A stretch of DNA of 64,000 nucleotides from Candidatus Oxydemutatoraceae bacterium (GTDB taxonomy: Bacteria > Pseudomonadota > Gammaproteobacteria > Poriferisulfidales > Oxydemutatoraceae), in contig CBDCOZ010000003.1 in the NCBI GenBank assembly GCA_965220085.1, positions 1,664,001 through 1,728,000 on the forward strand, written 5' to 3'. A model generated the notes under the pieces. It worked only from the letters and a program-made list of their open reading frames with translations, did no database searches and had not been told where the DNA came from. Shown in pieces: positions 10,966-55,460 of this stretch (positions are counted from its first letter, which is position 1; the number at the start of each line of letters is the position of its first letter). A program made the position numbers and the translations under genes.

Positions 10966-12607
10966 CTACCGCAACGGGCCTTCCAGGAAAAGGCGCAGGC
11001 GCAAGCGCAAGCGTTGCTCCAGATTTATCGTGATGGTGGCGGCATGGGCGCTGGTATTGCGGGTGATGGGTTGGCCAGCGTCATCAAGGTCGCCGCTCGG
11101 TTCATCGCCATCGTCGGTTACTTTGAAGGTGAATGCGGCATAGCCGCTCTGGACGCTCTGCCCGTCCGCCGGCCAGTAGGCGATGGCGCCGATGTTGGCG
11201 GCGGCCACGCGCTGACCGACAGTGGCGTCGGCGCCGCCTACCCGCAGGGTGCCGGCATCCGGCAGGCTGGCAATCTCCACGCTGGCCAAGTTGTCGCCGT
11301 CCTCATCATCAAAGGGAAAGTCTCTGATTGCGAACCTGAAAGGCCGGTTCATCGTGGCATCCGCCGACACATTTATCGTGCGGTCCCGGGGTATGGGCGC
11401 ATCGCTGGCGTTGTGCACCCGGGCGGCGGCGGAGCACAGCCCCGTCACAGTCTCCGGCATGGCGTGAAGATCTCTATAACTGACGCAGACGCGGATGTAC
11501 AGGCCGATATGCTCCAGCATGGGGGTGAATGAATCGCCAGTGGTACCGGGTATGGCGGTGAAAGTGCCGTTTATGGCGGCGGATGACCGCCATTCCCACT
11601 CAAGTGTGCGCAAGTCTATGCCATTGGGCTCCACTATGCCCTCTCTTCTGGCAAACAGTGCGGTATCTTCGGCGTAGGTCGGGGCTTCAACAGCGGTGGG
11701 GTTGCCGGGGTTGGTGACTATGGTGGGCCTGCCGCTGGTGGCAACCTGGGCTGTCGATACCAGACGGATAAAGATTTGGTTGGTGGTTCTGGAGGCCATG
11801 TTGCTGGTGCCATCGCTGCCATCATCGGTCACACCGAAAGCGATGATATCGTACGAGGCATTGGCATCATCAGGGTCGGTGGGTTGCTGGCCCGGCTCCG
11901 GGTAATAGGTCAGAGCGCCGGCATTCAGTTGGGCCACAGTTATGGGGTTTTCGGGGACGGCGGTCAGGGCCGTGCCATTCAGGGCCAGGGTGCCATTATT
12001 GGGCACTCGATTCAGGGTGACACTGGCCAGCATGTCGTTATCGGCATCCTCAAAAGTGAAGTCGGTTGACGGGAGCACATAGGGGTTCGCGGAAGTGGCG
12101 GTGGTCGCCACCGAAATGAAGTTGGCGGTGGGCATCGGCCGGTCATTGATGTTGGCCACGGCGGTGGCTATCTGGTTGCATCGCTGCTCGTCATTGCCGC
12201 CGCTGTCGGTGAACGATGCGCAGACCCGCAGAAACTTGCCCACCTCGTCATCGCCCGGAGTGAAGGCGGCCCTGTCCGCGCCGACGATGTCGGTATAGAT
12301 GCCGCCATTGCTATCGGCCGCACTCCACTGCCAGGCCAGGGTGCCGACCGTGGTGGTTGGCGTATTGTCCGGGTCTTCTATGCCGCCTTGGGATGCGGTG
12401 ATGGCGGAGTCTTCGGTGGGAGCGGCTATGCCGCTGGCGTAGGCGACCATCGGCATGCCGGTAGCATTGTCCTGTGCCTGTGCTTGAGTAGATACGATGA
12501 GGAAAGCGAGCAACAAGAGCGGGCAGAGACCGCACCCGCTCAGGTCAATTCGGCACGGGGGGGGGGGGGGGGGGGGGGGGCATCAGTATTAAAATTTGTT
12601 GTTTCAT
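10966..12607 (-). CDS. FLEGPLR-tail family member 1: secreted tandem Ig/cadherin-like protein; frameshifted at G24 tract (uninterrupted ORF 10966-12516)
   Basis: AGGA-preceded ATG at 12607 (MKQQILILM) is 1 nt out of frame; C23 gives an open read into LLLAFLIVSTQAQA-Q. Two WQW..I.GA...FTP..DVG..RVC domains and two DF.F.DAD.D.LASV domains; ends RLRLRLRLFLEGPLR. Confidence 0.8.
12557..12580. repeat. G24 homopolymer (poly-C on coding strand) in leader of member 1
   Basis: Counted directly. Confidence 0.9.
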
Positions 12608-13126
12608 ATCTATTATTCCTATGACAGTCTGTATATCACGAATGCAGTCGTGCGATGAGTTCTGCGCACTCTGCCACAAAATGCAAGTCATCTATCAGTT
12701 TCTGTATCTCCTGCTTCTAGCAAATTTAATTATACGTTATATGTCCACAAACTGTTTGCAGACTGTTTAATATTGCACTATACCACAAGTTCGGTCATTT
12801 GCAAATTGGATTGAAATCTAGGTTTTATCTAGGTTTGTGTCGCACTATACCACAAAGTGCGAATCATGCAAGCGCTTGTTTGATGCCATGACATAGCGGA
12901 CATCTGGGGCAGACATTGTGTGTCATTGGCGCTTGCACGGTATCCATGGCAATGCAATCTCAGGATGCGTTGCCTTAAAACCCATGCCGACGCAAGGGTT
13001 CTGGAGCCTGATTCGTTATCCATGGCAATGCGCGCGATGCGCTGCCCTGAAACCCTTGCCAAGACGGGGCTTGCGGTGTGCTATGCCGCCCCCCAGAATA
13101 CTCGCCTGCTCCGCAGATTACTCGCG
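12582..13126. repeat. Upstream block, copy 1 of 3 (also 15378-15853 and 20276-about 20567)
   Basis: Near-identical AT-richer sequence precedes members 1, 3 and 7; copy 1 has an extra internal duplication of about 72 bp. Confidence 0.9.
12777..12871 (-). promoter_or_regulatory. Two tandem sigma70-like promoters (TTGCAW-N16-TATAGT with extended -10 TG)
   Basis: Minus strand reads TTGCATgattcgcactttgTGgTATAGT (12871-12844) and TTGCAAatgaccgaacttgTGgTATAGT (12804-12777); same pair at 15573-15667 and 20472-20566. Confidence 0.55.
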
Positions 13127-13978
13127 CTATCGCAACGGGCCTTCCAGGAAAAGGCGCAACCGCAAGCGTATATCAGGCGGCAACTGTGTCACCTGATGAG
13201 CGTCTGTGCTACACAGCGGCCCTTCCGATGCGGGCATGGAAAACTGATCCTTGAAAGAAACACAGGCGCGGACGTACCTGCCCAGTTGTGCGGCAGTCGG
13301 TGCGAAATCTGAGGAATAAGTAGCGCCCGCTATGTCGCTGTAAGCACTGGGTGCGGGAACACCGCTGGCGGGGGCGTCGGCCTGTTGCCACTGCCAACTC
13401 AAGGTGCTGACATCAATGCCGTTGAGGTCCGTCACACCGGTGATGGAAGCGCTAATCCGGTGCGTGTCTGTGGCGGTGGCGATTGCGGGCGCGCCGCTGG
13501 CGGCCGTCTGCGCGAGGGCCCCAATCAGATTGATGGTCATGGTGGCCTTGCTATCGACACCCCCAGTCTGTATCGCAAAGGTAAAACTGTCGTAACCGTT
13601 GGCGACAGAGATGGCAGTGACCGGGGGGGTGTAGGAGACACCCTGGCTACTACTCGTTCCGGTGAGGTCAGAGGCGAGGTATATAAATGTCTGACCATCA
13701 CCGTCACCTGCGAGTGCCACCATGATATTGGTCCGGATATCTATCAGCCTGCCATTGGCGGGGTAGGAGAAGACCAGCACAGCGCCACTGGTAAGACCGA
13801 AATCTGCGGCGGTGAAGTAATATGTGCCGCCGCCAATCGGGACATCAACACTCTGGTCTGTCGCCTGGGCATAAACATGGGTTGCGCCCAATGCCAAGGG
13901 CAGAATCAGCAGAATAAGCAACCGACGGCTAAGCCGGGTTAGTGTTCGGGGGGCAGTATCAAAAATTTGGCAGTTCAT
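13127..13978 (-). CDS. FLEGPLR-tail family member 2 (283 aa): signal peptide, variable domain, Cys-pair Ig domain
   Basis: AGGAGA RBS before ATG 13978; LLILLILPLALGATHVYA-Q signal; ends DIRLRLRLFLEGPLR. Confidence 0.85.
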   Translation of the reverse strand: MNCQIFDTAPRTLTRLSRRLLILLILPLALGATHVYAQATDQSVDVPIGGGTYYFTAADFGLTSGAVLVFSYPANGRLIDIRTNIMVALAGDGDGQTFIYLASDLTGTSSSQGVSYTPPVTAISVANGYDSFTFAIQTGGVDSKATMTINLIGALAQTAASGAPAIATATDTHRISASITGVTDLNGIDVSTLSWQWQQADAPASGVPAPSAYSDIAGATYSSDFAPTAAQLGRYVRACVSFKDQFSMPASEGPLCSTDAHQVTQLPPDIRLRLRLFLEGPLR

Positions 13979-14085
13979 AGTATTTCTCCTGATGGTTTGG
14001 GTTTCGTGAATGCGGTTGTGCAATGAGTCGCACCATCTCTTGTGCGCCTCATAACACTCTCCTTTTCCGCCGTAGGTTACTTGCA

Positions 14086-15404
14086 TCATCGCAGGGGGCC
14101 CTCAAGGAAGAGACGCAACCGCAAGCGCAGATTTGAGATGCCGCTATCCGCGCCAGTCTCTATGCCAAAGGTCAGTGTGCCTGTATCGCCGTCTGCGTCG
14201 GTGGCGGTGAGGGTATAGGCGGTCTTGGCAACCGTAGCGGTGGGGGTGCCGCTTATGGTGCGGGTGGCTGCGGTGAAACTGAGGCCCGCGGGCAAGGCCG
14301 GGGTCAGGCTGTATGTGACAGCGCCATTGCCGCCGGTCGCCGCAGGCAGAATCAAGTCGGTGATGGCCTTGCCGGTCACCCAGACCTGATCCGCCACCGA
14401 TGTATTGTCGAAGAAGGGCACATTGGATACCAGTACGCCAGTGCTACACAGCTCTGAGGATGCCGGAGCGGAGAACTGGTCCATGAATGCGGCGCAAACC
14501 CGCAGGTACTTGCTCGCGTGTGCGGCAAGGGGTGTGAAGTTTGAGGAAATTGTGCCTCTGGCAACGGTTATATCGCTGTAGGCACTGATTGCATTGGCGC
14601 CAACGCCTATCACATCGGCCTGCTGCCACTTCCAGGTCAGGGTGGCGACATCAATGCCGTTGGGCTCCGTCACACCGGCGATGGATGCCGTAAGCAGCAC
14701 ACCGGTGTTATAGGCGGTGGCGCCCATGGCGGCCGCAACAGTGGGCGCGCCGCTGGCGGCCGTCTGCGTGGATGCTCCCACCAGATTGATGGTCACGGTG
14801 GCCGTGGTATGGTTGGCACCGACATGCAACTCAAAGATGAAGCTGTCATAACCGTTGGCGACAGAGATGGCAGCGGTCGGGGGCCTGTATTCGACGGTTC
14901 CGACTCCAGTGGAGAACTCAATCGGGAAATATGCATCTGTATTATCGTCATCAACACTTGAAACGCCCACGTCTCGCACAAGACTGGTATCAAATAACCT
15001 GCCATGAGTGGGTTGGGTTTGGAACATCAGTATTTGGGAGTCAAGACCGCCGAAATCTATTTTCCTGAGCACATATCCGTTGCTTCCAATAGTGACATCA
15101 ACACTGGTGTCCGAGGCTTGAGCGTTAGCCTGTGTCGCGCCCAATGCCAGACACAGGACCAACAGGCAACGCATGAGCGGATCCGACCACAGTCCGGCAG
15201 GCAGGCGGACCGCAACAGACCGCAACCACGACAACAGACCGCGCACAGCCGGGCGGCGCGACCGCTTTGCGGATGGCGGGTTGCTATGTGCGGGTGATAA
15301 AAAACGGGTGAGAAGGCGATACGGCGAAACGCCGGCAATCCCCTTACTTACAAAGCTGCGGGGGGGGGGGGGGGGGGTATCAGTATTAAAATTTGTTGTT
15401 TCAT
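14086..15404 (-). CDS. FLEGPLR-tail family member 3: variable domain, Cys-pair Ig, He_PIG-like Ig; frameshifted at G18 tract (in-frame alternative ATG 15174)
   Basis: AGGAGAG-preceded ATG 15404 needs C16 or C19; LPAGLSF.AATRTISGTPT putative-Ig motif; ends NLRLRLRLFLEGPLR. Confidence 0.8.
15360..15377. repeat. G18 homopolymer in leader of member 3
   Basis: Counted directly. Confidence 0.9.
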
Positions 15405-15853
15405 ATCTGTCTCTCCTGTGACAGTCTGTATATCGTGAATGCAGTCGTGCGATGAGTGCGGTGTGCTCTGCACAAAATGCAAGTCATCTATCAGTTTCTG
15501 TATCTCCTGCTTCTAGCAAATTTAATTATACGTTATATGTCCACAAACTGTTTGCAGACTGTTTAATATTGCACTATACCACAAGTTCGGTCATTTGCAA
15601 ATTGGATTGAAATCTAGGTTTTATCTAGGTTTGTGTCGCACTATACCACAAAGTGCGAATCATGCAAGCGCTTGTTTGATGCCATGACATAGCGGACATC
15701 TGGGGCAGACATTGTGTGTCATTGGCGCTTGCACGGTATCCATGGCAATGCAATCTCAGGATGCGTTGCCTTAAAACCCTTGCCAAGACGGGGCTTGCGG
15801 TGTGCTATGCCGGTCCCCAGAATACTCGCCTGCTCCGTCGCAGATTACTCGCG

Positions 15854-17005
15854 CTATCGCAACGGACCCTCAAGAAAGAGCCGCAGCCGCAAGCGCAGAT
15901 TTGAGATGCCGCGATCCGCGCCCGTCTCTATGCCAAAGGTCAGCGTGCTTGTATCGCCGTCTGCGTCGGTGGCGGTGAGAGCATAGGCGGTCTTGGCAAC
16001 CGTAGCGGTGGGGGTGCCGCTGATGGTGCGGGTGGCTGCGGTGAAACTGAGTCCCGCGGGCAGGGCCGGGGTCAGGCTGTACGTGACAGCGCCATTGCCG
16101 CCGGTCGCCGCAGGCAGAACCAGGTCGGTGATGGCCTTGCCGGTCGCCCAGACCTGATCCGCCACCGATGTATTGTCGAAGAAGGGCACATTGGATACCA
16201 GTACGCCAGCGCTACACAGCGGCCCTTCCGATGCGGGCGTGGAGAACTGGTCCATGAATGCGGCGCAAACCCGCAGGTACTTGCTCGCGTGTGCGGCAAG
16301 GGGTGTGAAGTTTGAGGAAATTGTGCCTGTGACAGTGGTTATATCGCTGTAGGCGCTGATTGCATTGGCGCCAATGCCTATAATATCGGCCTGCTGCCAC
16401 TTCCATGCCAGAGTGCCGACATTGATGCCGTTGGGCTCAGTCACACCTGTGATGGAGGCAACCAGCGGCACACCGGTGTTATAGGCGGTGGCGGTTGTGG
16501 CGGCCGCAACAGTGGGCGCGCCGGTAGCGGTCATCTGCGTGAGTGCCCCCACCATGTTGATGGTCACGGTGGCCGTGGTATGGTTGCCACCGACATGCAA
16601 CTCAAAGATGAAGCTGTCATAACCGCTGACGACAGAGATGGCAGTGGCCGGGGGCCTGTATTCGACACGATGGGTTCCGCCAGAGAAATCGATCGGGAAA
16701 TATCCATCCGCCTGATCGCCATAAACACTTGAAACCGCCACGTCTCGCATATCATTGGTATTATACAACCTGCCATGAGTGGGTTGGGTTTGGTATCTCA
16801 GTGTTTGGGAAACAAAACCGCCGATATCTGTTTTCTCGAGTGTATACCCACTGCTTCCAATAGCGACATCAACACTGGTGTCCGAGGCTTGAGCGTTGGC
16901 CTGTGTCGCGCCCAATGCCAAGGGCAGAATCAGCGACCAGCGGCTAAGCCGCGTCATCGTTGCCCGCCGGTGCCGGGGGGCGGTATCAGAAATTGGGTAG
17001 TTCAT
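15854..17005 (-). CDS. FLEGPLR-tail family member 4 (383 aa), close paralogue of member 3 with a different leader
   Basis: AGGAGA RBS before ATG 17005; signal ..LPLALGATQANA-Q; He_PIG-like domain; tail motif. Confidence 0.85.
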   Translation of the reverse strand: MNYPISDTAPRHRRATMTRLSRWSLILPLALGATQANAQASDTSVDVAIGSSGYTLEKTDIGGFVSQTLRYQTQPTHGRLYNTNDMRDVAVSSVYGDQADGYFPIDFSGGTHRVEYRPPATAISVVSGYDSFIFELHVGGNHTTATVTINMVGALTQMTATGAPTVAAATTATAYNTGVPLVASITGVTEPNGINVGTLAWKWQQADIIGIGANAISAYSDITTVTGTISSNFTPLAAHASKYLRVCAAFMDQFSTPASEGPLCSAGVLVSNVPFFDNTSVADQVWATGKAITDLVLPAATGGNGAVTYSLTPALPAGLSFTAATRTISGTPTATVAKTAYALTATDADGDTSTLTFGIETGADRGISNLRLRLRLFLEGPLR

Positions 17006-17112
17006 CGTATTTCTCCTTCTGGTTTGGGTTTCGTGAATGCGGTTGTGCAATGAGTCGCACCATCTCTTGTGCGCCTCATAACATTCTCCTTTTCCGCCGT
17101 AGGTTACTCGCA

Positions 17113-17979
17113 TCATCGCAACGGGCCCTCAAGAAAGAGGCGCAACCGCAAGCGTATATCAGGCGGCAACTCTGTCACCTGAGTGCCGGCGCTACACAGC
17201 GGCCCTTCCGGTTCCGGCGTGTCATGCTGATCCATAAAAGAAACACAGGCGCGCACATACCTGCCCAGTTGGGCGGCAGTCGGTGCGAAGAGGGAAGAAG
17301 TGGCATCCTCTATGTCAACAATGTAGTCGCTGGGTGCGGGAACACCGCTGGCGGGGGCGTCGGCCTGTTGCCACTGCCAGCTTAGGGTGCCGACATCAAT
17401 GCCGTTGAGGTCCGTCACACCGGTGATGGAAGCGCTGATCCGGTGCGTGTCTGTGGCGGTGGTGATTTTGGGCGCGCCGCTGGCGTCCGTCTGCGTGGAT
17501 GCGCCCACCAGATTGATGGTCATGGTGGCCCTGATATGGTTGCCGAAGGAACGTGTCTCAAAGATGAAGCTGTCGTAACCGTTGACGACAGAGACGGCAG
17601 CGGCCGGGGGCCTGTACTCCATAGTACCGGTTCCGCCGGAGCCGGTGAAATCGGCGCTCCAGAAATGTGCATCCCCGCCATCATCATCACCTAAAACGTC
17701 CACGTCTCGGTTAAGAGAGACATTAAACACCCTGCCATGAGTGGGTTGGGAGTAGAGATACAAAGTTCCATGGGTGGATCCAAAACCGCCGAAATCTGTA
17801 CGCTTAAATACATATGCGCCGCCAATCGGGACATTAACACTGCTGGCTTGAGCTTGAGCGTTGGCCTGTGTCGCGCCCAATGCCAAGGGCAGAATCAGCA
17901 GAATAAGCGACCGGCGGCTAAGCCGGGTCATCGTTGTCCGCCAGCACCGGGGGGCAGTATCAAAAATTTGGCAGTTCAT
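17113..17979 (-). CDS. FLEGPLR-tail family member 5 (288 aa)
   Basis: AGGAGA RBS before ATG 17979; signal peptide; variable plus Cys-pair Ig domain; tail motif. Confidence 0.85.
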   Translation of the reverse strand: MNCQIFDTAPRCWRTTMTRLSRRSLILLILPLALGATQANAQAQASSVNVPIGGAYVFKRTDFGGFGSTHGTLYLYSQPTHGRVFNVSLNRDVDVLGDDDGGDAHFWSADFTGSGGTGTMEYRPPAAAVSVVNGYDSFIFETRSFGNHIRATMTINLVGASTQTDASGAPKITTATDTHRISASITGVTDLNGIDVGTLSWQWQQADAPASGVPAPSDYIVDIEDATSSLFAPTAAQLGRYVRACVSFMDQHDTPEPEGPLCSAGTQVTELPPDIRLRLRLFLEGPLR

Positions 17980-19680
17980 AGTATTTCTCCTAATGGTTTG
18001 GGTTTCGTGAATGCGGTTGCAATGAGTCGCACCATAAACAATCCGCAAACAGTTGATGGAGCACAATACTTAATTGTTTGTGCCTCATTAAATGTTGCTT
18101 GTGTACATAACTCACAAAGCGCAAGTCATCCACAAGTATCTTTGTATCCTGTCTCATCCTCTTGTGCACCTCATAACTATCCTTCTCCGCAGCTACGCAC
18201 TACCGCAACGGGCCTTCAAGGAAAAGGCGCAGGCGCAGGCGTATATCAGGCGGTAGCTCTGTCACCCGAGTGCCGGCGCTACACAGCGGCCCTTCCGGTT
18301 CCGGCGTGTCATGCTGATCCATAAAAGAAACACAGGCGCGCACATACCTGCCCAGTTGGGCGGCAGTCGGTGCGAAGAGGGAAGAAGTGGCATCCTCTAT
18401 GTCAACAATGTAGTCGCTGGGTGCGGGAACACCGCTGGCGGGGGCGTCGGCCTGTTGCCACTGCCAGCTTAGGGTGCCGACATCAATGCCGTTGAGGTCC
18501 GTCACACCGGTGATGGAAGCGCTAATCCGGTGCGTGTCTGTGGCGGTGGTGATTTTGGGCGCGCCGGTAGCGGCCGTCTGCGTGGATGCTCCCACCAGGT
18601 TGATGGTCATGGTGGCCATCGTATCGACACCCCCAGTCAGTATCGAAAAGGTAAAACTGTCGTAACCGTTGGCGACAGAGATGGCAGTGGCCGGGGGTGT
18701 GTAGGAGACACCCTGGCTGTTAGCCGTTCCGGTGAGGTCAAAAGCGAAGTATGCAAACGTCTGACCATCACCGTCACCTGCGAGTGCCACCATGATATTG
18801 TTCCGGATATCTATCAGCCTGCCATTGGCGGGGTGGGAGAAGAACCGCACAGCGCCACTGGTAAGACCGAAATCTGCGGCAGTAAAGTAATATGTGCTGC
18901 CGCCAATCGGGACATTAACACTCTGGTCCGTCGCCTGGGCATAAACATAGGTTGCGCCCAATGCCAAGGGCAGAATCAGCAGAATAAGCGACCGGCGGCT
19001 AAGCCGGGTCATCGTTGTCCGCCAGCACCGGGGGGCAGTATCAAAAATTTGGCAGTTCATAGTATTTCTCCTAATGGTTTGGGTTTCGTGAATGCGGTTG
19101 CAATGAGTCGCACCATAAACAATCCGCAAACAGCTGATGGAGCACAATACTTAATTGTTTGTGCCTCATTAAATGTTGCTTGTGTACATAACTCACAAAG
19201 CGCAAGTCATCCACAAGTATCTTTGTATCCTGTCTCATCCTCTTGTGCACCTCATAACTATCCTTCTCCGCAGCTACGCACTACCGCAACGGGCCTTCAA
19301 GGAAAAGGCGCAGGCGCAGGCGTATATCAGGCGGTAGCTCTGTCACCCGAGTGCCGGCGCTACACAGCGGCCCTTCCGGTTCCGGCGTGTCATGCTGATC
19401 CATAAAAGAAACACAGGCGCGCACATACCTGCCCAGTTGGGCGGCAGTCGGTGCGAAGAGGGAAGAAGTGGCATCCTCTATGTCAACAATGTAGGCGATG
19501 GGTGCGGGAACACCGCTGGCGGGGGCGTCGGCCTGTTGCCACTGCCAGATTAGGGTACCGACATCAATGCCGTTGAGGTCCGTCACACCGGTGATGGAAG
19601 CGCTAATCCGGTGCGTGTCTGTGGCGGTGGTGATTTTGGGCGCGCCGGTAGCGGCCGTCTGCGTGGATGCCCCAACCATG
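17875..19680. repeat. Near-identical direct repeat of about 720 bp, period 1081 (about 17875-18600 and 18956-19680)
   Basis: Starts 17979/19060 and stops 18200/19281 are both 1081 apart, with matching intervening text. Confidence 0.9.
18200..19060 (-). CDS. FLEGPLR-tail family member 6 (286 aa)
   Basis: AGGAGA RBS before ATG 19060; variable domain of member-2 type; 3' half nearly identical to members 5 and 7. Confidence 0.85.
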   Translation of the reverse strand: MNCQIFDTAPRCWRTTMTRLSRRSLILLILPLALGATYVYAQATDQSVNVPIGGSTYYFTAADFGLTSGAVRFFSHPANGRLIDIRNNIMVALAGDGDGQTFAYFAFDLTGTANSQGVSYTPPATAISVANGYDSFTFSILTGGVDTMATMTINLVGASTQTAATGAPKITTATDTHRISASITGVTDLNGIDVGTLSWQWQQADAPASGVPAPSDYIVDIEDATSSLFAPTAAQLGRYVRACVSFMDQHDTPEPEGPLCSAGTRVTELPPDIRLRLRLFLEGPLR

Positions 19681-20302
19681 TTGATGGTCATGGTGGCCGT
19701 GGTCTCGACGCCACCTCTAAGTATCACGAAGATGAAGCTGTCATAACCGTTGACGTCAGAGATGGCAGCGGTCGGGGGCCTGTATTCGATATCACCGGTT
19801 CCGCCAGAACCAGAGAAATCGCCCCAGAAATATGTATCCAAAAAGCCATCATCAACACCTGAAACGGCCAAGTTTTCGTTAAGAGAGACATCAAACACCC
19901 TGCCATGAGTGGGTTGGGTGTAGAGAAACAAACTTCTGCCGGATCCAAAACCGCCGAAATCCGTACGCTTGAATACATATGCGCCGCCAATCGGGACATT
20001 AACACTGCTGGCTTGAGCCTGAGCGTTGGCCTGGGTTGCGCCCAATGCCAGGCACAGGGCCAGCAGGCAACGCATGAGCGGACCCGACCACAGTCCGGCG
20101 GGCAGGCGGACCGCAACAGACCGCAGCCACAACAACAGACCGCGCACAGCCGGGCGGCGCGACCGCTTTGCGGATGGCGGGTTGCGATGTGCGGGTGATA
20201 AAAAGCGGGTGAGAAGGCGATACGGCGATACGCCGGCAATCCCCTTACTTACAAGGCTGCGGGGGGGGGGGGGGGTATCAGTATTAAAATTTGTTGTTTC
20301 AT
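19281..20302 (-). CDS. FLEGPLR-tail family member 7; frameshifted at G15 tract (in-frame alternative ATG 20075)
   Basis: AGGAGAG-preceded ATG 20302 needs C16 or C13; variable domain of member-5 type; tail motif. Confidence 0.8.
20261..20275. repeat. G15 homopolymer in leader of member 7
   Basis: Counted directly. Confidence 0.9.
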
Positions 20303-20642
20303 ATCTATCTCTCCTATGACAGTCTGTATATCGTGAATGCAGTCGTGCGATGAGTTCTGCGCACTCTGCCACAAAATGCAAGTCATCTATCAGTTTCTGT
20401 ATCTCCTGCTTCTAGCAAATTTAATTATACGTTATATGTCCACAAACTGTTTGCAGACTGTTTAATATTGCACTATACCACAAGTTCGGTCATTTGCAAA
20501 TTGGATTGAAATCTAGGTTTTATCTAGGTTTGTGTCGCACTATACCACAAAGTGCGAATCATGCAAGTGCCTTTGTATCCTGCCTCTCTCCCCTTGTGTG
20601 CGCCCCCAGAATACTCGCCTGCTCCGCCGCCGGGTATTCGCA

Positions 20643-20735
20643 TTATCGCAGGGGACCTTCAAGGAAGAGGCGCAGGCGCAAGCGTATATCAGGCGGCAAC
20701 TCTGCCACCAGACTGCCTGTGCTACACAGCGGCCT
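20643..20735 (-). pseudogene. Orphan 3' fragment of an FLEGPLR-tail gene (PLCSTGSLVAELPPDIRLRLRLFLEGPLR)
   Basis: Last 30 or so codons match the ends of members 2/5/6/7; upstream sequence is unrelated and lacks a signal peptide. Confidence 0.8.
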
Positions 20736-20938
20736 TTCGGGGCGGGCACCTCCGGCGGGGATAGCGCGGAAATAGGCGGTATTGCTACCTCCGCCGCTTT
20801 TGCCGTGTGAAAATAGCGATTCGGCATCGCCGTTTTGCGACACCTTCCGTTGGCCGGGTAGCGTCGGGTATGTCGGTCCCGACTCTGAGTACGGGTATAT
20901 AATGGCGATAACATTTTCCACTACGGGACATCTCAATC

Positions 20939-35405: not shown

Positions 35406-36524
35406 CTACCGCAACGGGCCTTCAAGGAAGAGCCGCAACCGCAAGCGCACGGGGCGCATCGGGTCTATGGCGAAGGTCAGCGTATCGGTCTCTCCGTCCA
35501 CATCGGTGGCGGCATAGGCGTATCGGATTATGGCGGATGCCGTCGTAGGTGTGCCGCTGATGGTGCGGGTGTCGGCATCAAAGGCGAGGCCGTCGGGCAG
35601 GGCCGGGCTTATGCTGTAGGCGGTGTTATTGCCGCCGGCGGCTGCGGGCAATACCAGAGGTGTGGTCGTGCCGGGCGGCCAAATCCGGGTGCCCACCGTT
35701 GCATCGCCAAAGTCGGGCGCGCTGTTTGCCACCAGATTGATGGTTATCGTGGCGGCAGGGCCAACGCCATAAGGCCCATCCGCTCCTGCCAGGAAATCAA
35801 ATCTGGCGTAATCACTGCCGACAGTGGCATCGGCGGGCGGCGCGTATGTGACTCCCTCGCTTGAAATGAATTCGTGTCCGAACACAGCGATAGGCAACGA
35901 GGAGTAAGTATCTCCGCTGATTCTAAGAATGCCATCGGCGGGAAGACTTTCAAGGAAAAGGCTGACTTGTCCATAATCAGCGCCCTCTTCGTCCTCATGG
36001 CGAAAGTCGCTGAGGCGAAATCGCGATGTGCGGCCAACCGGGAAGTCGACGCTGCTGGGCAGGGCATTGATATCATTGAGGTTGACCACCGCCGCAGCGG
36101 AAGTCCAGCAACGGGTCTCGCGGTTGCCGGCATCATCGTCAAAGGTAGCACATACACGCAGAAACTTGCCCACATGCTCCTGCAGGGGCGTGAAAGTCGC
36201 GGCGGTGGCGCTTGCTATGTCCGCGAAGGAACCGCCGGCTGTTTCGCCCTGTTGCCACTGCCAGGCGGGGCTGAAGTTGGCTATGCCATCGGTGGTGTCG
36301 GCTATGCTGCCTCGGGCCGCGGTCAAGTGGATGTCCTCATTGGGGCCGCCGCTCACGGCGCTGCCGTCCGCCGTGACCGTGACCGCCGGTGTGCCGGTGG
36401 CGTTCTGCGCCTGCGTCGGTGCGCAGACAACAAACAGCGCCGACAGAATCAGCGCCCGGAGGCTAAGCCGGGTGAGCGCTGTCCGCCAGCGCCGAGGGGC
36501 GGTATTAGAAATTTGTCGCTTCAT
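35406..36524 (-). CDS. FLEGPLR-tail family member 8 (372 aa): Cys-pair Ig, variable domain, He_PIG-like domain
   Basis: GGGAGA RBS before ATG 36524; signal ..LILSALFVVCAPTQA-Q; ends PVRLRLRLFLEGPLR. Confidence 0.85.
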   Translation of the reverse strand: MKRQISNTAPRRWRTALTRLSLRALILSALFVVCAPTQAQNATGTPAVTVTADGSAVSGGPNEDIHLTAARGSIADTTDGIANFSPAWQWQQGETAGGSFADIASATAATFTPLQEHVGKFLRVCATFDDDAGNRETRCWTSAAAVVNLNDINALPSSVDFPVGRTSRFRLSDFRHEDEEGADYGQVSLFLESLPADGILRISGDTYSSLPIAVFGHEFISSEGVTYAPPADATVGSDYARFDFLAGADGPYGVGPAATITINLVANSAPDFGDATVGTRIWPPGTTTPLVLPAAAGGNNTAYSISPALPDGLAFDADTRTISGTPTTASAIIRYAYAATDVDGETDTLTFAIDPMRPVRLRLRLFLEGPLR

Positions 36525-36815
36525 AGTATTTCTCCCAATAGTTTGTGTTTCGCGAATGCGGTTGCGCAATGCGTTGCACTGTAAACAATCTGCAAACAGT
36601 TAATGGAGCACAAACAACTTAAGAAGCCACAAACAGTTTATGGAACACAAACAATATAATTGTTTGTGCCTCTTATTTTTGTGCCTCATTAAATGTTGTT
36701 TGTGTACATTAAGCAATCCGCAAACAACTGAGTTGTTTGTGTACATACTCCGCATCCTGTCCCATCCTCTTGTGCGCCTCATAACACTCTCCTTCTCCGC
36801 CGCCGGTCACTCGCG

Positions 36816-37622
36816 CTACCGCAACGGGCCTTCAAGGAAGAGCCGCAACCGCAAACGCACGGGGCGCATCGGGTCTATGCCGAAGGTCAGCGTATCGGTC
36901 TCCCCATCCGCATCGGTGGCGGTGAGGGTGTGTCGGATCATGGCGGATGCCGTCGTGGGCGCGCCGCTGATGGTGCGGGTGTCGGCATCAAAGGCGAGGC
37001 CGTCGGGCAGATCCGGGGTGATTGCGTAGGTGATGGCGCCATTGCCGCCGGTGGTTGCGGGCAATACCAGAGGTACGGTCGTGCCGGGCGGCCAAATCCG
37101 GGTGCCCACCATTGCATCGCCAAAGTCGGGCGCGCTATTGGCCACCAAGTTGATGGTCATGGTGGCAGTAGTACCTAATCTTGTGCCCTGAGCCTCCGCA
37201 CCGAAGACAAATCTGGCGTAATCACTGCCGACAGTGGCATCGGCGGGCGGTGTGTATGTTATTCCCTCGCTTGAAGCGAATTCGACCCTGAACAGAGAGA
37301 CGAATGTGTTTTGGCCTCCTTGGGCAATAGCTCCCTTGATTCTAAGAGTGCCATCGGCAGGAAGATTTGGAAGGATAAAGTCGGGTTGCGGATAATCAGA
37401 GCCATCTTCGGCTTCATGACGAAAGTCGCTGAGACGGAAACGCGATGTGCGACCAACCGCGAAGTCGACACTGCTGGGCAGGCTGTTAATCACAGTGACG
37501 TTCTGCGCCTGCCCCGGTTCGCAGACAACAAACAGGACCGGCAGAGCCAGTGTCCAGAGGCTAAGCCGGGTGAGCGCTGTCCGCAAGCGCCGGGGGGTAG
37601 TATTAGAAATTTGTCGTTTCAT
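36816..37622 (-). CDS. FLEGPLR-tail family member 9 (268 aa): variable domain plus He_PIG-like domain
   Basis: AGGAGA RBS before ATG 37622; signal peptide; LPDGLAFDADTRTISG; tail motif. Confidence 0.85.
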   Translation of the reverse strand: MKRQISNTTPRRLRTALTRLSLWTLALPVLFVVCEPGQAQNVTVINSLPSSVDFAVGRTSRFRLSDFRHEAEDGSDYPQPDFILPNLPADGTLRIKGAIAQGGQNTFVSLFRVEFASSEGITYTPPADATVGSDYARFVFGAEAQGTRLGTTATMTINLVANSAPDFGDAMVGTRIWPPGTTVPLVLPATTGGNGAITYAITPDLPDGLAFDADTRTISGAPTTASAMIRHTLTATDADGETDTLTFGIDPMRPVRLRLRLFLEGPLR

Positions 37623-37798
37623 AGTATTTCTCCTAATAGTTTGTGTTTCGCGAATGCGGTTGCGCAATGCGTTGCACTGTAAACAATCTGCAAACAGTTA
37701 ATGGAGCACAAACAACTGAGTTGTTTGCGCACACATCTGGTATCCTGTCCCATCCTCGTGTGCGCCTCATAACTCTCCTCCGCCGCCGGTCACTCGCA

Positions 37799-38750
37799 TT
37801 ACCGCAACGGGCCTTCAAGGAAGAGCCGCAACCGCAAACGCACGGGGCGCATCGGGTCTATGCCGAAGGTCAGCGTATCGGTCTCCCTATCCGCATCGGT
37901 GGCGGTGAGGGTGTATTCGGCGGCAGCGGATTCCGCCATGGGTGTGCCGCTGATGGTGCGGGTGTCGGCATCAAAGGTCAGGCCGTCGGGCAGAGCCGGG
38001 GCGACTGTATAGGTGATGGGGCCATTGCCGCCGGTGACTGCGGGCAATATCAGAGGCGCGGTCGTGCCGGGCGGCCAAATACGGGTGCCCGCCGTTGCAT
38101 CGCCAAAATCGGGCGCGCTGTTTGCCACCAGATTGACGGTCACGGTGCCCGTGGTATGGCTGCCACCGACATGTAACTCAAAGATGAAGCTGTCATAACC
38201 GTTGACGACAGAGATGGCAGTAATCGGGGGCCTGTATTCGACGGGTCCGACTCCGGCGGAGAAGTCACTCGCGACATATGTGCTTAGCTGACCGCCACCT
38301 CCGCTTGAAAGCGACACGTCTCGCTGAGGTATGGTATCAAACAACCTGCCATGAGCGGGTCGGGTTTGGAACAACAGTGTTTGGGAGACAAAACCGCCGA
38401 TATCTGTTTTCCTGAGCGCATATCCGCTGCTTCCAATAGCGACATCAATGCTGGTGTCCGAGGCTTGAGCGTTGGCCTGTGTCGCGCCCAATGCCAAGCA
38501 CAGGGCCGGCAGGCAGCGCATGAGCGAACCCGACCGCAACCCGGCGACCGGGCGCACCGCAACAGACCGCAGCCACAGCAACAAACCGCGCACAACCGGG
38601 CGGCGCGACCGCTTTGCGGATGGCGGGTTGCTATGCGCGGGTGATAAAGAACGGGTGAAAAGGCGATACGGCGAAACGCCGGCAATCCCCTTACTTACAA
38701 AGCTGCGGGGGGGGGGGGGGGGGGGTCAGTATTAAATTTTTTCTGTTCAT
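37799..38750 (-). CDS. FLEGPLR-tail family member 10; frameshifted at G19 tract (in-frame alternative ATG 38521)
   Basis: ATG 38750 (MNRKNLILT) needs C18 or C21; leader and variable domain like members 3/4, He_PIG-like domain like members 8/9. Confidence 0.8.
38707..38725. repeat. G19 homopolymer in leader of member 10
   Basis: Counted directly. Confidence 0.9.
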
Positions 38751-43881: not shown

Positions 43882-43892
43882 AATGCGCGCGC

Positions 43893-49962: not shown

Positions 49963-49992
49963 TGACTGCTTCCGTCATCAAAACTTTGTAAC

Positions 49993-51159: not shown

Positions 51160-51201
51160 TATAATGAGACTTATGCAAACAACCAACTTACAAACTTAAT
51201 A

Positions 51202-51402
51202 ATGGACGATTTATACAGAAACACTACGACCGCGATGGAAGAAGCCGGAGCGGACTCGGATTACATAATCGGATGGCAAGGAGGCTACCTCGGTCATCCC
51301 GCCCGTGAAAAACAGCGCGCATCGGAAGCCTATCTTGCGGGATATGCCGACGGACAGGAAAAGAACACTGCCAACTACGAGAAATGGGCTGACAACAAAT
51401 GA
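51202..51402 (+). CDS. Alvin_2107-like small sulfur-globule oxidation protein, copy 1
   Basis: ME..G.D.DYI.GWQGGYL..P.RE.QR..EAY.AGY.DG pattern, recognised from memory of that family. Confidence 0.7.
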   Translation: MDDLYRNTTTAMEEAGADSDYIIGWQGGYLGHPAREKQRASEAYLAGYADGQEKNTANYEKWADNK

Positions 51403-51620
51403 ACCCGCCCGCTTCAAACAGACCTCCGGATTGCCATTGCGATGACAACAGCGCGAGTACCGCGCGGCGGAGAAAGAAAGTGTCAGAGGGAACGCAAGAG
51501 GTGCGACAGGATACGAAGTCACTTGCAAGTGACGCGCACTGTGTGGCAGGCTACGGCACTAAGAGTAGCAACACGCATTGCATAAGTATTCGCTAAACAC
51601 AAACCATGAGGAGAGATACC

Positions 51621-53547
51621 ATGAAACGAGAGTCTTTTAATACCCCCCCCCCCCCCCCCCCTGAACGGGCGGGCAACACTAACCCGGTTTAGCCTCCGGT
51701 CGCTCATTCTGCCGACCCTGTTTGTTATCTGCGCTCAGGCACAGAGCGCGCCTGTGGCTCAGGACAAAACCATCGATGTTCAGGTGGGCGATACGTTTTA
51801 CACCTTCACGGCGGATGACTTCCCGATAACCGATGCAGACGGTGATGATGGTCTGGCAGTTGGCAGTCGCATATACGTGGAGAGCTTGCCTGTTTCCGGC
51901 AGTAACGCACGAGGTAACTTGGTCACTGCGCCTCTTGGCGCCCGCGTAGTTTTAAGCACGGGAGATTTCGCCACCGAATCCCGCCTCCGGGCAGGCGAGT
52001 TCAGGTACGAGTTGTCCCCCGGTGCCACGAATGTTGTCAGCGGTTATGCCACTTTCACCTATAGCTACTCGGCCGATGAGGGCGCTACCCGTAGCAACAC
52101 CGCCACCATCACCATCAACCTGGCGAGGATGCAGACGCAGATGCCGGCAACCGGCGCGCCCACTGTGACGGCGCCGATGGGCAACACAGTCTGGGACGAG
52201 GATGCGCTCCACACCGCCACTGCTCGCGGTATCAGAGACCCCAATGGCTTTAGCGTCACAGAAGTCACCTGGCAGTGGCAACAGGCCGTCGTCGCCGACG
52301 GGGCAACCCCGGCGGACAGCGACTACGCCAATATTGCCGCGGACACCGCCACCTTTCTCTCCACCACATTCACACCGCTACAGGCACATGTGGGGAACTA
52401 CATACGGGTGTGCGCATCCTTCCCGGACAGCATCGTACCGGCCGTCCGCGAGCGACGTTGCACCGCAGGCAATGTCATCGCCAATGTCAACGATGCCCCG
52501 GTTGCGCAGAACAACACCATCTTTGTGCCGGTAGGCAGCAGTTATGCCTTCTCGGCGGGCGACTTCCCGTTCACAGATGAAGACGACGATGCGTTGGACG
52601 GAGTTGTCCTACAGACCATACCCGCCAACGGCGCCCTGAGCAGGGGTAGCACGGCTTTGACTGGCAGTCAGGTTCCCAGAACTGTAGCGCTGGATGATAT
52701 AGGCGCCATCAGCTACACAGCGACCGGTCAGAACCCGAGCGCAGGCTACGCCACTTTCACATTCAATGTGGTTGACGCCGGCAACGATGGTGTCAGCAAC
52801 AAGAACAGCACCAACACCGCCGCCATGACCATAGACCTGGTGCCGTCCGCGCCATCGGCGGCAACCGGCGCACCGACGGTGACGGCGGCATCGGGCGCCG
52901 CCTACAACGAAGGCGCGGAACTGACCGCAGCTATTGGCGACGTAGCCGATGCCAACGGCATCCCTGCCCACGGTCAGATGACGTGGCAATGGCAACAGTC
53001 CGCCACCACGGCCACCGACACATACGAAAACATAGCCGGAGCCACCGGCGCCGCCTTCGTGCCCGGGCGGGAACATGTCGGCCAATACATCCGCGCCTGC
53101 CTCGGTTTCACCGACGGCATAGGCGCCGCCGAGATGCGCTGCTCCGCCGGCAACATCATTGTCAGAGTCAATTCGGTGAGTGTGCCGATTACCGCCGACG
53201 CAAACGCGCCCTATACTTTCAAGCTATCCGACTTTATATTTCCGGGCGATGACATTGACAATCTGGTCAGCATCACCATAGTCACCACGATAGCATCGGG
53301 CAAGGGCATATTTCGCAACGACGGCGCCGCAGTAACCGCCAACACCACAGTGACCGCTGCCGGCCTGCGCAACGGCGACCTCACTTTCTATCCCCCGGCC
53401 AACACCGCCGCCGCCGATAGCTTTGCCAGTTTCACCTATACCGTGAACTATGGAGGCGCCAACACCGCCACCCGCACGATGAACATCAATCTGGCGGAGC
53501 GCCTGCGCTTGCGGCTGCGCCTGTTCCTCGAAGGGCCGTTGCGATAG
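51621..53547 (+). CDS. FLEGPLR-tail family member 11, five-domain Ig/cadherin-like; frameshifted at C19 tract (uninterrupted ORF 51754-53547)
   Basis: GAGGAG RBS before ATG 51621; C18 restores MKRESFNT-Pn-LNGRATLTRFSLRSLILPTLFVICAQAQS signal; C19 stops at TAG; tail motif. Confidence 0.82.
51643..51661 (+). repeat. C19 homopolymer in leader of member 11
   Basis: Counted directly. Confidence 0.9.
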
Positions 53548-53714
53548 CGCGAGCGCCGCCTCGCAGGATTTGCGCCTAGCACGCTCCCTCGCGGGAAGCG
53601 TATCGGGAGGCCGAAAAGCAGATAGACAAAGGGGAAGCCCTGGCCTGCTTTCAAAAAGCCCTCGCATCCTGATATAATGAGACTTATGCAAACAACCAAC
53701 TTACAAACTTAATA

Positions 53715-53915
53715 ATGGACGATTTATACAGAAACACTACGACCGCGATGGAAGAAGCCGGAGCGGACTCGGATTACATAATCGGATGGCAAGGAGGTTA
53801 CCTCGGTCATCCCGCCCGTGAAAAACAGCGCGCATCGGAAGCCTATCTTGCGGGATATGCCGACGGACAGGAAAAGAACACTGCCAACTACGAGAAATGG
53901 GCTGACAACAAATGA
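53715..53915 (+). CDS. Alvin_2107-like protein, copy 2 (identical protein)
   Basis: Same 66-aa translation as 51202-51402; one synonymous GGC/GGT difference seen. Confidence 0.7.
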   Translation: MDDLYRNTTTAMEEAGADSDYIIGWQGGYLGHPAREKQRASEAYLAGYADGQEKNTANYEKWADNK

Positions 53916-54133
53916 ACCCGCCCGCTTCAAACAGACCTCCGGATTGCCATTGCGATGACAACAGCGCGAGTACCGCGCGGCGGAGAAAGAAAGTGTCAGA
54001 GGGAACGCAAGAGGTGCGACAGGATACGAAGTCACTTGCAAGTGACGCGCACTGTGTGGCAGGCTACGGCACTAAGAGTAGCAACACGCATTGCATAAAC
54101 ATTCGCTAAACACGAACCATGAGGAGAGAGACT

Positions 54134-55460
54134 ATGAAACGAGAGCCTTTTAATACCCCCCCCCCCCCGGCGCAGGAGCCTGCACCACTTATGGTCGCTG
54201 GCACTGCTCGCCCTTTTCATCTTATCCACCCAGGCCCAACCGCACAGCAACCACGCTCCCGACAGCCCGGTTGTTCTGGGTCTGATTAAGCCGAACGCCA
54301 GCAATAAAAATGTATGGGTGTTGCCCACTGCCACCGCCGACAGCCCGTACACTTTCAAGACGAACGACTTTCCTTTTTTTGACCGTGACGGCGATACCCT
54401 GACCAGGGTCACCATAAAGAGCCTGCCATCCGCCGGAACCATGCTGGTGGACGGTTCCGCCGCCACTCAGGGGCAGAATGTGGCAACCGCCGACATCGGC
54501 ACCATCAAATACTATCCGGCACCGGGACAGTCCGCACAGGCCAACTACGCCAGCTTCACATTCAGCGTCACGGCTGGCGGTCAGGAATCCGGCAATGGCA
54601 CAATCACCATCAATCTTATCGCAACCGAGCAAGTCCCAGCCACCGGCTCGCTCGCACTATTTCTACTGCACGGCAGCGATACAAGCGCATTAGATGAGGA
54701 TACGCCATTAGAGGAGGATATACCATTAGGCATATCAGGTTTTTTCAGCATTGTCGACCTCAACACCATACCTAGCGGCGCACTGACAAGCCTCAAATTT
54801 AAATGGCAACAATCCGCCACCCGGGGCGGCCAATTCACAGACATCACTGATACCAGTCTCGGAAACCCCAATTTCACCCCTCTGCAAATCCATGTGGGCA
54901 CATACATACGCGGCTGTGTCGTCTTTCTGGACGGACATGCCACCCCCAACCTTGAGACGGTGTGCTCCGCAGCTGGTCAGGTAACGAATAGAGGCGACCA
55001 GCCCGTGGGCGGCCCCAGCACTGTTAAGGTGCCAACTAATGCCATACCCACTAAGCCGCACCGCTTTGCGCGGACGGACTTTCCCTTTTCCGATGAGGAT
55101 GGCGACACCATCAATGGCATTCGCATAACCGCCCCGCCCACCAGAGGCACCCTGGTGGTGCGGGCGGGCGATTCCAGCACCGCCATAGCCATAGGCGCCG
55201 AGCTGACCCTGGCCCAGATGAATGCCCTGGCATACTATCCGGAACCCAATGCCCCCGCTGGTGCGGGCTATGCGACATTCACATACAGAGTGCGGGATAC
55301 TGGCACTGTAAGCACCCAGGTCTTAAGATGCATAGGGACTGATTGCAGTCAATATGCTGGCAGCACCAACGAGGCCGACACCGATTCCACCCTCACCATA
55401 GACCTGATAAACACAATCCGCCTGCGGTTGCGCGTTTTCCTTGAGGGGCCGTTGCGGTAG
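54134..55460 (+). CDS. FLEGPLR-tail family member 12; frameshifted at C13 tract (uninterrupted ORF 54318-55460)
   Basis: GAGGAG RBS before ATG 54134; C12 restores ..RRRSLHHLWSLALLALFILSTQA-Q signal; ends IRLRLRVFLEGPLR. Confidence 0.82.
54156..54168 (+). repeat. C13 homopolymer in leader of member 12
   Basis: Counted directly. Confidence 0.9.

Follow-up and report, generated by a model that had tools for sequence, protein, structure and literature searches.

What could one short peptide do at the extreme end of many secreted proteins that otherwise have little in common? The question is raised by a stretch of 64,000 nucleotides (nt) from a Candidatus Oxydemutatoraceae bacterium (GenBank assembly GCA_965220085.1, contig CBDCOZ010000003.1, positions 1,664,001 to 1,728,000 of the forward strand), hereafter called the window and numbered from its first letter. 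A first-pass annotation had described in it 12 genes and one orphan gene end that share the same 13 residues, here called the tail, directly before the stop codon. The whole of our analysis of this tail was computational, and it leads us to an explanation that we consider probable: the tail would be the first β-strand of an anchoring module resembling the X-module-dockerin dyad (XDoc) of cellulosomes, the module would have been split by gene fission in this bacterial family, and the tail would plug its cargo protein into a shared acceptor protein.

A C-terminal peptide under purifying selection

Six-frame translation of the window returned FLEG 13 times, always three residues before a stop codon and each time preceded by RLRLR[LV]. 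The 13 frames fall into three arrays, 10966-20936 (8 frames, including an orphan of 97 amino acids, aa), 35406-38593 (3 frames) and 51621-55460 (2 frames), in agreement with the genes, orphan and arrays of the first-pass annotation. TAG, TGA and TAA are all represented among their stop codons. When 10 of the window tail proteins were compared with Pfam, 6 matched He_PIG and 1 matched Big_9, leaving 3 with nothing.

A genome-wide search for the tail, which the annotation had recommended, was carried out on the source genome (G000; 2.49 Mb in three contigs, 55.8% guanine plus cytosine, GC). A total of 215 stop-to-stop frames end in FLEG[PAS]Lx, with TAG as the stop in 136, TAA in 51 and TGA in 28. 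A back-translated DNA pattern of the tail gave 214 matches in the same genome, compared with 0 for the reversed control pattern. Since the set is defined by how the frames end, it is circular to count F, L, E, G and the penultimate L as invariant within it. The terminal Arg and the Arg at tail position 5 were left free in the pattern, and both are R in 215 of 215 frames, the former with 96 synonymous and 0 non-synonymous variants and the latter with 42 synonymous variants. Under a definition that is independent of the end (LR[LIVM]R at positions -12 to -9, n = 213), 200 frames end in [LIV]FLEGPLR, 6 have one to three substitutions, and 7 are unrelated. At the DNA level, 189 distinct 39-nt tail sequences were counted among the 215 frames, and column entropy is at background directly ahead of the tail and returns to it about 9 nt past the stop. 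Purifying selection acts on the tail peptide. The annotation had placed selection on the peptide and not on a DNA site, a claim borne out by the synonymous variation and by the 200 of 213 frames recovered with the end-independent definition.

The sequences that precede the tail are diverse, the 60 aa ahead of it forming 11 unrelated clusters (the largest with 80, 42, 36, 10 and 10 members). Together the tail frames sum to 164,241 residues, or 19.8% of G000. At least 200 aa are found in 181 of the 215, at least 1000 aa in 15 and at least 4000 aa in 8, with the largest at 15,193, 14,215 and 13,255 aa; the adhesin-like cargo proteins are between 200 aa and over 15,000 aa long. Signal peptides were assessed by eye and by a crude rule, without a dedicated predictor, and the rule was passed by 167 of 186 tail frames of at least 150 aa. 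The earlier statement that all full members carry Sec-type signals has to be qualified for six window members in which a poly-C tract splits the conserved ATG from the signal peptide or leader.

Tails written with other codons and with conservative changes were found in other genera (IRVRIKVFLEGPLR, LLRVKLFLEGPFR, FVHVRVLLEGLLP, LTVRIRVFLEGAVIP, FLRVRVFLEGPLQ, VHVRVLLEGLLP, LRLRVRVFLQGALQ), giving a cross-genus consensus of [RK]-h-[RK]-h-F-L-[EQ]-G-[PA]-h plus one or two further residues. The Arg/Leu alternation is not kept across genera, and nor is the terminal Arg, in place of which other genera have Gln, Pro or Asn. The peptide itself is kept across genera that differ in codon usage and GC (G011, G015), with a GC of 48.5% at the G015 locus compared with 55.8% in G000. 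When a window member was used as a database query, most of the 74 matches were to G000's own three contigs, and the tail end was present in 0 of the 6 foreign homologues examined. Some Bacteroidota homologues with He_PIG carry PF18962 in place of the tail.

As a short, genome-wide and lineage-specific C-terminal signature on Sec-exported surface proteins, independent of the domain that precedes it, the tail resembles the known C-terminal sorting signals (PEP-CTERM/exosortase, GlyGly-CTERM/rhombosortase, LPXTG/sortase and type IX). Unlike them, it has no transmembrane helix or basic cluster past the motif; the protein ends 3 residues past FLEG, which leaves no room for the helix of the PEP-CTERM, GlyGly-CTERM, LPXTG and IPTL-CTERM class. 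NCBIfam, searched at E-values up to 1 with 6 full tail proteins and two 39-aa tail pieces, returned no sorting-domain match. The C-terminal domain of type IX secretion is a folded domain of 70-100 residues, compared with the 13 residues shared here, and no match to Por_Secre_tail, TIGR04183 or TIGR04131 was obtained with 10 (Pfam) or 6 (NCBIfam) window members. The β-signal of the β-barrel assembly machinery (BAM) does not fit either, as 215 of 215 tails in G000 end in Arg and not in an aromatic residue, and no barrel domain was called by Pfam or NCBIfam. The view of the first-pass annotation that known sorting signals do not fit is therefore upheld by the Pfam and NCBIfam blanks, the non-aromatic end and the missing space for a helix. 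The proposed reader of the tail also differs, being a soluble split-domain acceptor in place of the membrane transpeptidase of sortase-type signals.

Stop codon recoding or read-through was considered and ruled out, because three stop codons are used and conservation is gone beyond about 9 nt downstream. The 'CGCGAG' found past many stops had also suggested a group II intron or an attC-like element there, an idea dropped on the same grounds.

Irregular copies of the tail were also observed. Outside the window, at G000:C3:513720-514211, tandem units of 156 nt each encode about 50 residues ending in the tail and a stop, and degenerate second tail ends ('..HSLEGRLR', '..LLLEGPLR') lie about 50 nt past some stops. 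The tandem units and the degenerate copies suggest unequal recombination between tails. Five longer stop-to-stop frames of G000 contain an internal tail close to their start (e.g. ..LRLRVFLEGPLRGGSGCSSS..), which may reflect lost stops or an overlap with the frame of the next gene.

Fused and split forms of a widespread module

A candidate partner of the tail is encoded next to tailed genes in related genomes. In G015, tailed giants of 4974, 3519 and 3507 aa are each followed by a short spacer and then by a 276-aa gene that has a ribosome-binding site and a signal peptide of its own. The product of this gene, which we call the acceptor, contains the motifs PLQDPYC, VVDWVLMELR, LLSNGRVVDA and VVRHRNHL, and its end is dockerin-like (Pfam Dockerin_1, 16.4 bits, cut-off 22.9). 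The order of giant, stop, about 20-40 nt and acceptor is seen twice in G015 and also in G017 and G002, with a gap of about 1 kb in G012, and it looks like fission in place. Read-through into the acceptor in these sister genomes was ruled out, because the spacer has several stops and the acceptor has a ribosome-binding site and signal peptide of its own. In G000 the acceptor is a single-copy gene located outside the window (G000:C3:469169-470137; 322 aa from a TTG, the database entry P0001 starting at the ATG two codons past it), and its product matches the G015 protein with an E-value of 2.6e-19 and the family profile with 2.7e-84. Across the family, acceptors are 260-370 aa long and have a Sec-type signal peptide.

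Most of these proteins continue from the signal peptide directly into 'xxMxxxLxxxxIPxxDPYC', with no strand 1 ahead of it. Strand 1 is absent from 21 of 22 database matches beyond the query's own protein, two of the 21 being partial, and the sole fused match (P0023) is longer, with VVNIKAFLQGPYSSGSMTTAL ahead of the shared motifs. In the alignment, the cleavage region of the acceptor signal peptide sits at the position of strand 1, and the module is therefore cut between 'FLEGPx', the piece on the cargo, and 'xxMxxxL', the piece on the acceptor.

The unsplit form of the module is widespread. Searching with the acceptor profile gave 14,686 cluster representatives at E-values of at most 1e-3 and 1,246 at no more than 1e-30, and the module is usually located at the C-terminus of larger, secreted proteins. 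All 17 of the 17 fused proteins that were fetched have the domain start [LV]x[LV][KR]x[FLY]L[EQ]G[PAS][FY], for example LNLKVFLEGPY, INLRVFLEGPF and LDLKAFLEGPF, and the consensus of the fused module (alignment A3) reads NLKVFLEGPYxxGxMxTxLNxxGxIPLxQPY...VVDWVLVELR...HRNHL. In 71 loci from Bacteroidota, Ignavibacteriota, Chlorobiota, Calditrichota, Cloacimonadota and other phyla, strand 1 was recognised in 88 of 89 domain instances, by pattern in 82 and by eye in a further 6; this count leaves out 6 of 80 loci in which no domain was detected by pattern. Three loci from candidatus Porisulfidus, which a passage of PMC12988363 names among known gammaproteobacterial sponge symbionts, had strand 1 in 0 of 5 instances. 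The tail is homologous to strand 1 ('lnLKvFLEGPf') of this module. The first-pass annotation had supposed that the partner could be a Bacteroidota-type C-terminal domain lacking its first strand, and the strand 1 of the fused homologues, together with the secreted acceptors that have none, supports the idea of such a strand-less partner. The sole strand-less instance outside the family, at about 4033 of locus L062 (Candidatus Neomarinimicrobiota bacterium), is in a frame that starts 36 residues before DWVLVELR, and may be an independent split or a truncated gene.

The fused module also occurs in tandem or N-terminally (P0024, P0027, P0045 and P0135). Its β domain is covered by no Pfam or NCBIfam model. 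For the C-terminal part, comparison of the sequence profile with solved structures gave only weak matches, to dockerin chains (E 0.008-0.07), and Dockerin_1 scored 25.1 bits in P0027. A cohesin is present in some homologues, with an E-value of 2.9e-9 in P0160 and a score of 22.1 bits, below the cut-off of 24.1, in P0023.

Both states of the module are found within one family. The module was detected in 16 of 18 genomes of the family, compared with 0 of 12 genomes from other families of the order. The genome G001 (about 2.4 Mb) has 25 module matches within open frames of up to 17,496 aa, with strand 1 in cis (IRARVFLQGAYDG, VDARVVLQGALLAG); its frames that end in the unsplit module include those of 17,496, 16,130, 10,864 and 10,540 aa (e.g. 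G001:C1 838839-839528 and 569255-570004). These fused giants and the tailed giants of G000 have repeat units in common, at 27-36% identity. One instance in G009 is fused as well, in a 650-aa frame. Tails of the form FLEGPxx-stop number 214 in G000, 34 in G007, 16 in G011, 15 each in G002 and G015, 12 in G017 and 5 in G012, and all other genomes have 0-1, which is the control level. Co-occurrence profiling, another proposal of the first-pass annotation, found the acceptor in 7 of 7 genomes with at least 5 such tails. Of five further acceptor-bearing genomes, four (G010, G006, G003 and G005) have giants with the variant tails FLEGAVIP, FLEGALQ and FLQGALQ. Judged from these sequences, we appear to have caught a domain fission with its fused and split states in one bacterial family.

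Predicted fold, predicted complex and competing explanations

The AlphaFold2 (AF2) model of the fused homologue P0164 has a mean predicted local distance difference test (pLDDT) score of 77.2. Strand 1 corresponds to residues 67-74 of the model, with a pLDDT of about 90 or more from residue 71. In a structural scan this model matched 3kcp_A (Z 11.1, root-mean-square deviation (rmsd) 3.6 A, 150 residues aligned) and 5g5d_B (Z 10.4, rmsd 3.7 A, 150 aligned of 156), with no other match above Z 5.4. Foldseek placed the same C. thermocellum X-module-dockerin entries on top with an E-value of 1.5e-3, none reaching 1e-3 or below. The predicted structure of P0164 thus has the two parts of an XDoc, an Ig-like X-module and a dockerin, as a likeness of fold and not as proof of common descent.

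The XDoc dyad at the end of scaffoldins binds type II cohesins of cell-surface anchoring proteins. Compared with the XDoc of clostridial cellulosomes (C. thermocellum CipA; PDB 3kcp, 5g5d, 2b59 and 4fl4), the unsplit module is alike in its two-part fold, strand 1 included, in the weak dockerin sequence matches of its C-terminal half, in its C-terminal position on large secreted proteins and in the presence of cohesin in some homologues. It differs in sharing only 12-17% sequence identity with the solved dyads and in belonging to organisms that are Gram-negative and non-cellulolytic. It also differs in that the X-like module is here split over two genes, and in that no cohesin exceeds the cut-off in G000. 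To our knowledge, a gene-split X-module has been described for no XDoc.

Complex prediction, which the first-pass annotation had named as a check, paired residues 30-320 of the acceptor (alignment A1) with a tail piece of 45 residues (alignment A2), tail gene 2 of the window being the first row of alignments A2 and A4. The tail was placed in the acceptor with an interface score (ipSAE) of 0.78 (runs 0.81, 0.77 and 0.78), compared with 0.00 for the best of 3 controls; in the calibration of the tool, 58 of 80 solved complexes and 2 of 110 mismatched pairs reach this mark, counts that are a rough guide here because we supplied our own alignments. At least 82% of contacts are shared between the runs, and the partner pLDDT is 54 or more. 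Tail residues 29-45 (PPDIRLRLRLFLEGPLR) form the interface and contact the acceptor contiguously at 170-175 and 211-219 and at alternate residues of 104-111, 127-133 and 188-196. The lowest expected error is found between tail residues 33-37 and acceptor residues 137-139, 170-173 and 213-217. We read these predicted contacts as a core strand that would be hydrogen-bonded on both sides. The tail also touches acceptor residues 30-34, which are the first mature residues, as would be expected if the two chains had once been continuous in the unsplit domain. The acceptor's own pLDDT is 59-63 with the tail and 48-49 with unrelated partners. Tail and acceptor are structurally compatible in these computations, and the predicted complex, the fused homologues and the strand-less acceptors all support the earlier idea that the tail is inserted into a shared partner by strand complementation. 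The other suggestions of the annotation, an outer-membrane translocon, a pilus subunit and adhesin tips, receive no such support.

We therefore propose the following mechanism, in which binding in trans, its site in the cell envelope and its use for anchoring or display are inferred. The cargo would be exported by Sec carrying strand 1 only, with its stop one or two residues past the FLEGP turn, and the rest of the module would be exported by Sec as the separate acceptor. Outside the cytoplasm, the tail would insert as the missing core strand into the incomplete β-sandwich of the acceptor, a complementation of the fold in trans, and every tailed protein would thereby be joined to one common adaptor. 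The dockerin-like half of this adaptor would then attach the complex to a putative receptor on the cell surface or on another protein. A somewhat bolder reading, towards which we lean with reservation, is that of a natural 'plug-and-display' system, in which a 13-residue non-covalent universal tag and one adaptor would serve some 200 adhesin-like proteins, giants above 15,000 aa among them, and slippage at poly-C tracts would switch many of these proteins on and off individually.

Several observations weigh against the proposed split module. G013 bears an acceptor and has only a weak tail-like match (E 0.06) and no clear tail. Pfam and NCBIfam give nothing for the acceptor of G000 (P0001), the dockerin-like half of which is degenerate, and no cohesin in G000 exceeds the curated cut-off (best 14.4 bits, E 0.056). 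There is one acceptor gene in this genome for about 200 cargo genes. The score of the complex may reflect intramolecular contacts of the unsplit domain that the model has learned, and it speaks for a fit and not for binding in the cell. For a whole tail protein, the AF2 model (mean pLDDT 52.7, below 50 in the tail region) is too poor to place the tail relative to the preceding domain.

A different role for the same contact would be that of an export or targeting signal, bound transiently in the periplasm by the acceptor or by another factor that acts as a chaperone or pilot to an outer-membrane translocon, e.g. that of type II secretion. Cargo and acceptor both have Sec-type signal peptides and would thus meet in the periplasm. 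Strand complementation is equally compatible with a chaperone role, PapD-type chaperones being known to bind in this way. The acceptor locus of G000 (L011, G000:C3:455040-474257) has a type II secretion cluster (gspA, B, E, F, J, K, L) about 3 kb upstream of the acceptor gene, although this proximity was observed in a single genome and intervening genes separate the two. The weak fold matches include a type II secretion pilotin (5wec_B, Z 4.8), within the noise range of the tool, whereas the leading fold match is an anchoring dyad. In other phyla, moreover, the module is covalently part of its cargo, at times in tandem or at the N-terminus, which argues for a structural or binding module, and we regard a transient signal as unlikely. 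It is still harder to accept that the tail acts alone, as an Arg/Leu strand that binds the outer membrane or lipopolysaccharide, or pairs with other tails, independently of the acceptor. The alternation of R and L over six residues in G000 is indeed the pattern of an amphipathic strand, but it is lost in other genera (IRVRIKVFLEGPLR, LLRVKLFLEGPFR, FVHVRVLLEGLLP, LTVRIRVFLEGAVIP), and the part that is conserved is the [FL]LEG turn, which is likewise conserved in strand 1 of the fused domain. Strand-less acceptors that co-occur with tailed genes and adjoin them would be left unexplained, and we consider this possibility quite improbable.

Lastly, the tail could be a functionless remnant of a lost module, or a repeated piece of gene-end DNA, made uniform by recent duplication or gene conversion. 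The cargo genes are recent paralogue expansions with homologues nearly all from the same genome, tandem 156-nt tail units and degenerate second copies past some stops exist, and the first 6-8 nt past the stop are partly conserved. Against a remnant, however, the 189 distinct 39-nt sequences encode essentially one peptide, their variation is mostly synonymous (96 against 0 at the final Arg), and about 206 members, defined irrespective of how the tail ends, include 200 with a perfect end. The peptide stands behind 11 unrelated sequence contexts and is kept across genera of differing codon usage and GC, while DNA conservation decays within about 9 nt past the stop. We give this explanation very little credence, and return to the split module.

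Two groups of known systems are close to the split module in principle. Chaperone-usher pili (PapD/FimC) use donor-strand complementation and exchange, and the type V pili of Bacteroidia use strand exchange. As in these pili, an incomplete Ig-like β-sandwich would be completed by an alternating-hydrophobic core strand of another chain, the tail side of this likeness being read from predicted contacts. In contrast to these pili, the acceptor lacks its first strand, the donor is the extreme C-terminus of unrelated cargo, one acceptor would serve about 200 donors without forming a homopolymer, and the fold family is X-module-like. Nothing points to a chaperone or an usher, although no search aimed at them was made. 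SpyTag/SpyCatcher (split CnaB2) and strand 11 of split GFP are engineered split-domain tags, the SpyTag bond being a covalent isopeptide. The tail is likewise a single detached β-strand that would re-dock into the rest of its domain; unlike these laboratory constructs, the tail system would be natural and genome-wide, and nothing indicates a covalent bond.

In the literature searched, supplements not included, the tail and module motif strings had no match (HRNHL occurred only as an unrelated acronym), and none of the matching papers listed (12 of 19) joined X-dockerin with strand complementation. Fold complementation and dockerin-type anchoring are each known, and as far as our searches reach their combination, with a natural fission and a 13-residue universal tag, is undescribed. 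If our explanation is true, the tail represents a class of signal for sorting or anchoring proteins that has not been described before in Gram-negative bacteria, one that works without a membrane-embedded sortase or a large sorting domain. It would account for a 2.5 Mb genome that has about one fifth of its DNA for interchangeable surface proteins, and it would be the means by which a sponge-symbiont lineage varies its surface, as a natural analogue of engineered split tags. If the tail docks in trans, it would also give a first functional handle on a common unannotated module of Bacteroidota and related phyla, and would provide a natural peptide-protein pair for protein engineering.

Poly-C tracts, tail genes and neighbouring genes

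Many of the tail genes begin with a homopolymer. G000 has 90 C/G runs of 9-28 nt, compared with only two A/T runs, both of 9, and a C run of at least 8 is located at the 5′ end of 84 of the 215 tail frames. Typically, a ribosome-binding site is followed by ATG AAA CGA CAA ATT TTT AAT AC, the C run and then the signal peptide. In the 53 tract genes with a recognisable ATG and ribosome-binding site, the frame is kept across the tract in 12 and lost in 41. Six tracts of 13-24 nt are present in the window (Table 1), each after a ribosome-binding site, an ATG and the conserved 'MK(R/Q)QI..' start of a tail gene or leader; five of the six could be scored, and all five are out of frame in the assembly. 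A long homopolymer in the 5′ coding region and genes in differing frames, the marks of a contingency locus, are thus both found. The poly-C tail genes look like a very large phase-variable set, with homopolymer errors of the assembly possible for any single gene. The only raw-read run had 1 read over the stretch; contigs of the best sample reproduce a 19-C tract, perhaps from the same data, and contigs are blind to minority lengths. Taken together, the tail system and the poly-C tracts point to large-scale surface variation in a host-associated bacterium.

Table 1. Tail genes of the window, with their poly-C tracts, and other frames mentioned in the text
Feature	Coordinates	Strand	Tail codons	Tail stop	Poly-C tract	Description
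Tail gene 1	10966..12607	-	10969-11007	10966 (10966-10968)	24-C, 12557-12580 (G on plus strand)	~516-540 aa; two Cys-pair Ig and cadherin-like units; no Pfam match; conserved ATG ~12607-12605, tract after ATG; body out of frame with ATG as assembled
Tail gene 2	13127..13978	-	13130-13168	13127		283 aa; ATG with AGGAGA ribosome-binding site; signal peptide ends ..THVYAQA
Tail gene 3	14086..15174	-	14089-14127	14086	18-C, 15360-15377	362 aa from ATG at 15174; He_PIG; leader upstream with ATG and tract
Tail gene 4	15854..17005	-	15857-15895	15854		383 aa; He_PIG
Tail gene 5	17113..17979	-	17116-17154	17113		288 aa; TGA stop overlaps ATGATG of next frame
Tail gene 6	18200..19060	-	18203-18241	18200		286 aa
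Tail gene 7	19281..20075	-	19284-19322	19281	15-C, 20261-20275	start is ATG of MRCLLALCLALGATQANAQA; leader upstream with ATG and tract
Orphan tail	20643..20936	-	20646-20684	20643		97-aa frame; end of Cys-pair unit and tail only
Tail gene 8	35406..36524	-	35409-35447	35406		372 aa; He_PIG
Tail gene 9	36816..37622	-	36819-36857	36816		268 aa; He_PIG
Tail gene 10	37799..38521	-	37802-37840	37799	19-C, 38707-38725	start is ATG of MRCLPALCLALGATQANAQA; He_PIG; leader upstream with tract
Tail gene 11	51621..53547	+	53506-53544	53547	19-C, 51643-51661	~640 aa; ATG 51621; body in +1 frame relative to its ATG, so reads 'off' as assembled
Tail gene 12	54134..55460	+	55419-55457	55460	13-C, 54156-54168	~440 aa; Big_9; ATG 54134; tail codons encode RLRLRVFLEGPLR; body in +1 frame relative to ATG
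66-aa frame, copy 1	51202-51402	+				upstream of tail gene 11
66-aa frame, copy 2	53715-53915	+				upstream of tail gene 12
DksA-domain frame	29433-30770	+				445 aa

Outside the window, a 1369-aa protein is encoded directly downstream of the acceptor gene; it has a Gly-run, carries a hydrophobic helix at its C-terminus and is basic at its end. NCBIfam choice-of-anchor U matched it at 30.3 bits, below the cut-off of 32; a Pfam scan was blank, and the atlas leads were sub-threshold (best 0.87; a cluster with 13% cohesin at 0.84). Linked to the acceptor by position alone, it is a candidate receptor or co-anchor. The idea that it shares an N-terminal domain with the giants of G015 was unsupported (BLASTP E 0.5).

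Within the window, a near-identical 66-aa frame (MDDLYRNTTTAMEEAG...EKWADNK) occurs with its flanks ahead of each of the two plus-strand tail genes, and both genes are thus preceded by one shared upstream module of about 450 nt. The remaining genes of the window are ordinary proteobacterial housekeeping genes, encoding DksA, HscA/HscB/IscU/IscS, an OmpA-family protein, lipopolysaccharide glycosyltransferases, exonuclease VII, PNPase, IMP dehydrogenase and GMP synthase, and on the basis of this gene set the organism is therefore a Gram-negative bacterium. In the 445-aa frame listed in Table 1, DksA domains are found only at residues 329-435, and the N-terminal extension ahead of them, some 330 residues long, matches nothing in Pfam. 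The AT skew is unusually high, at 0.22-0.28, in the part of the window between 28 and 32 kb.

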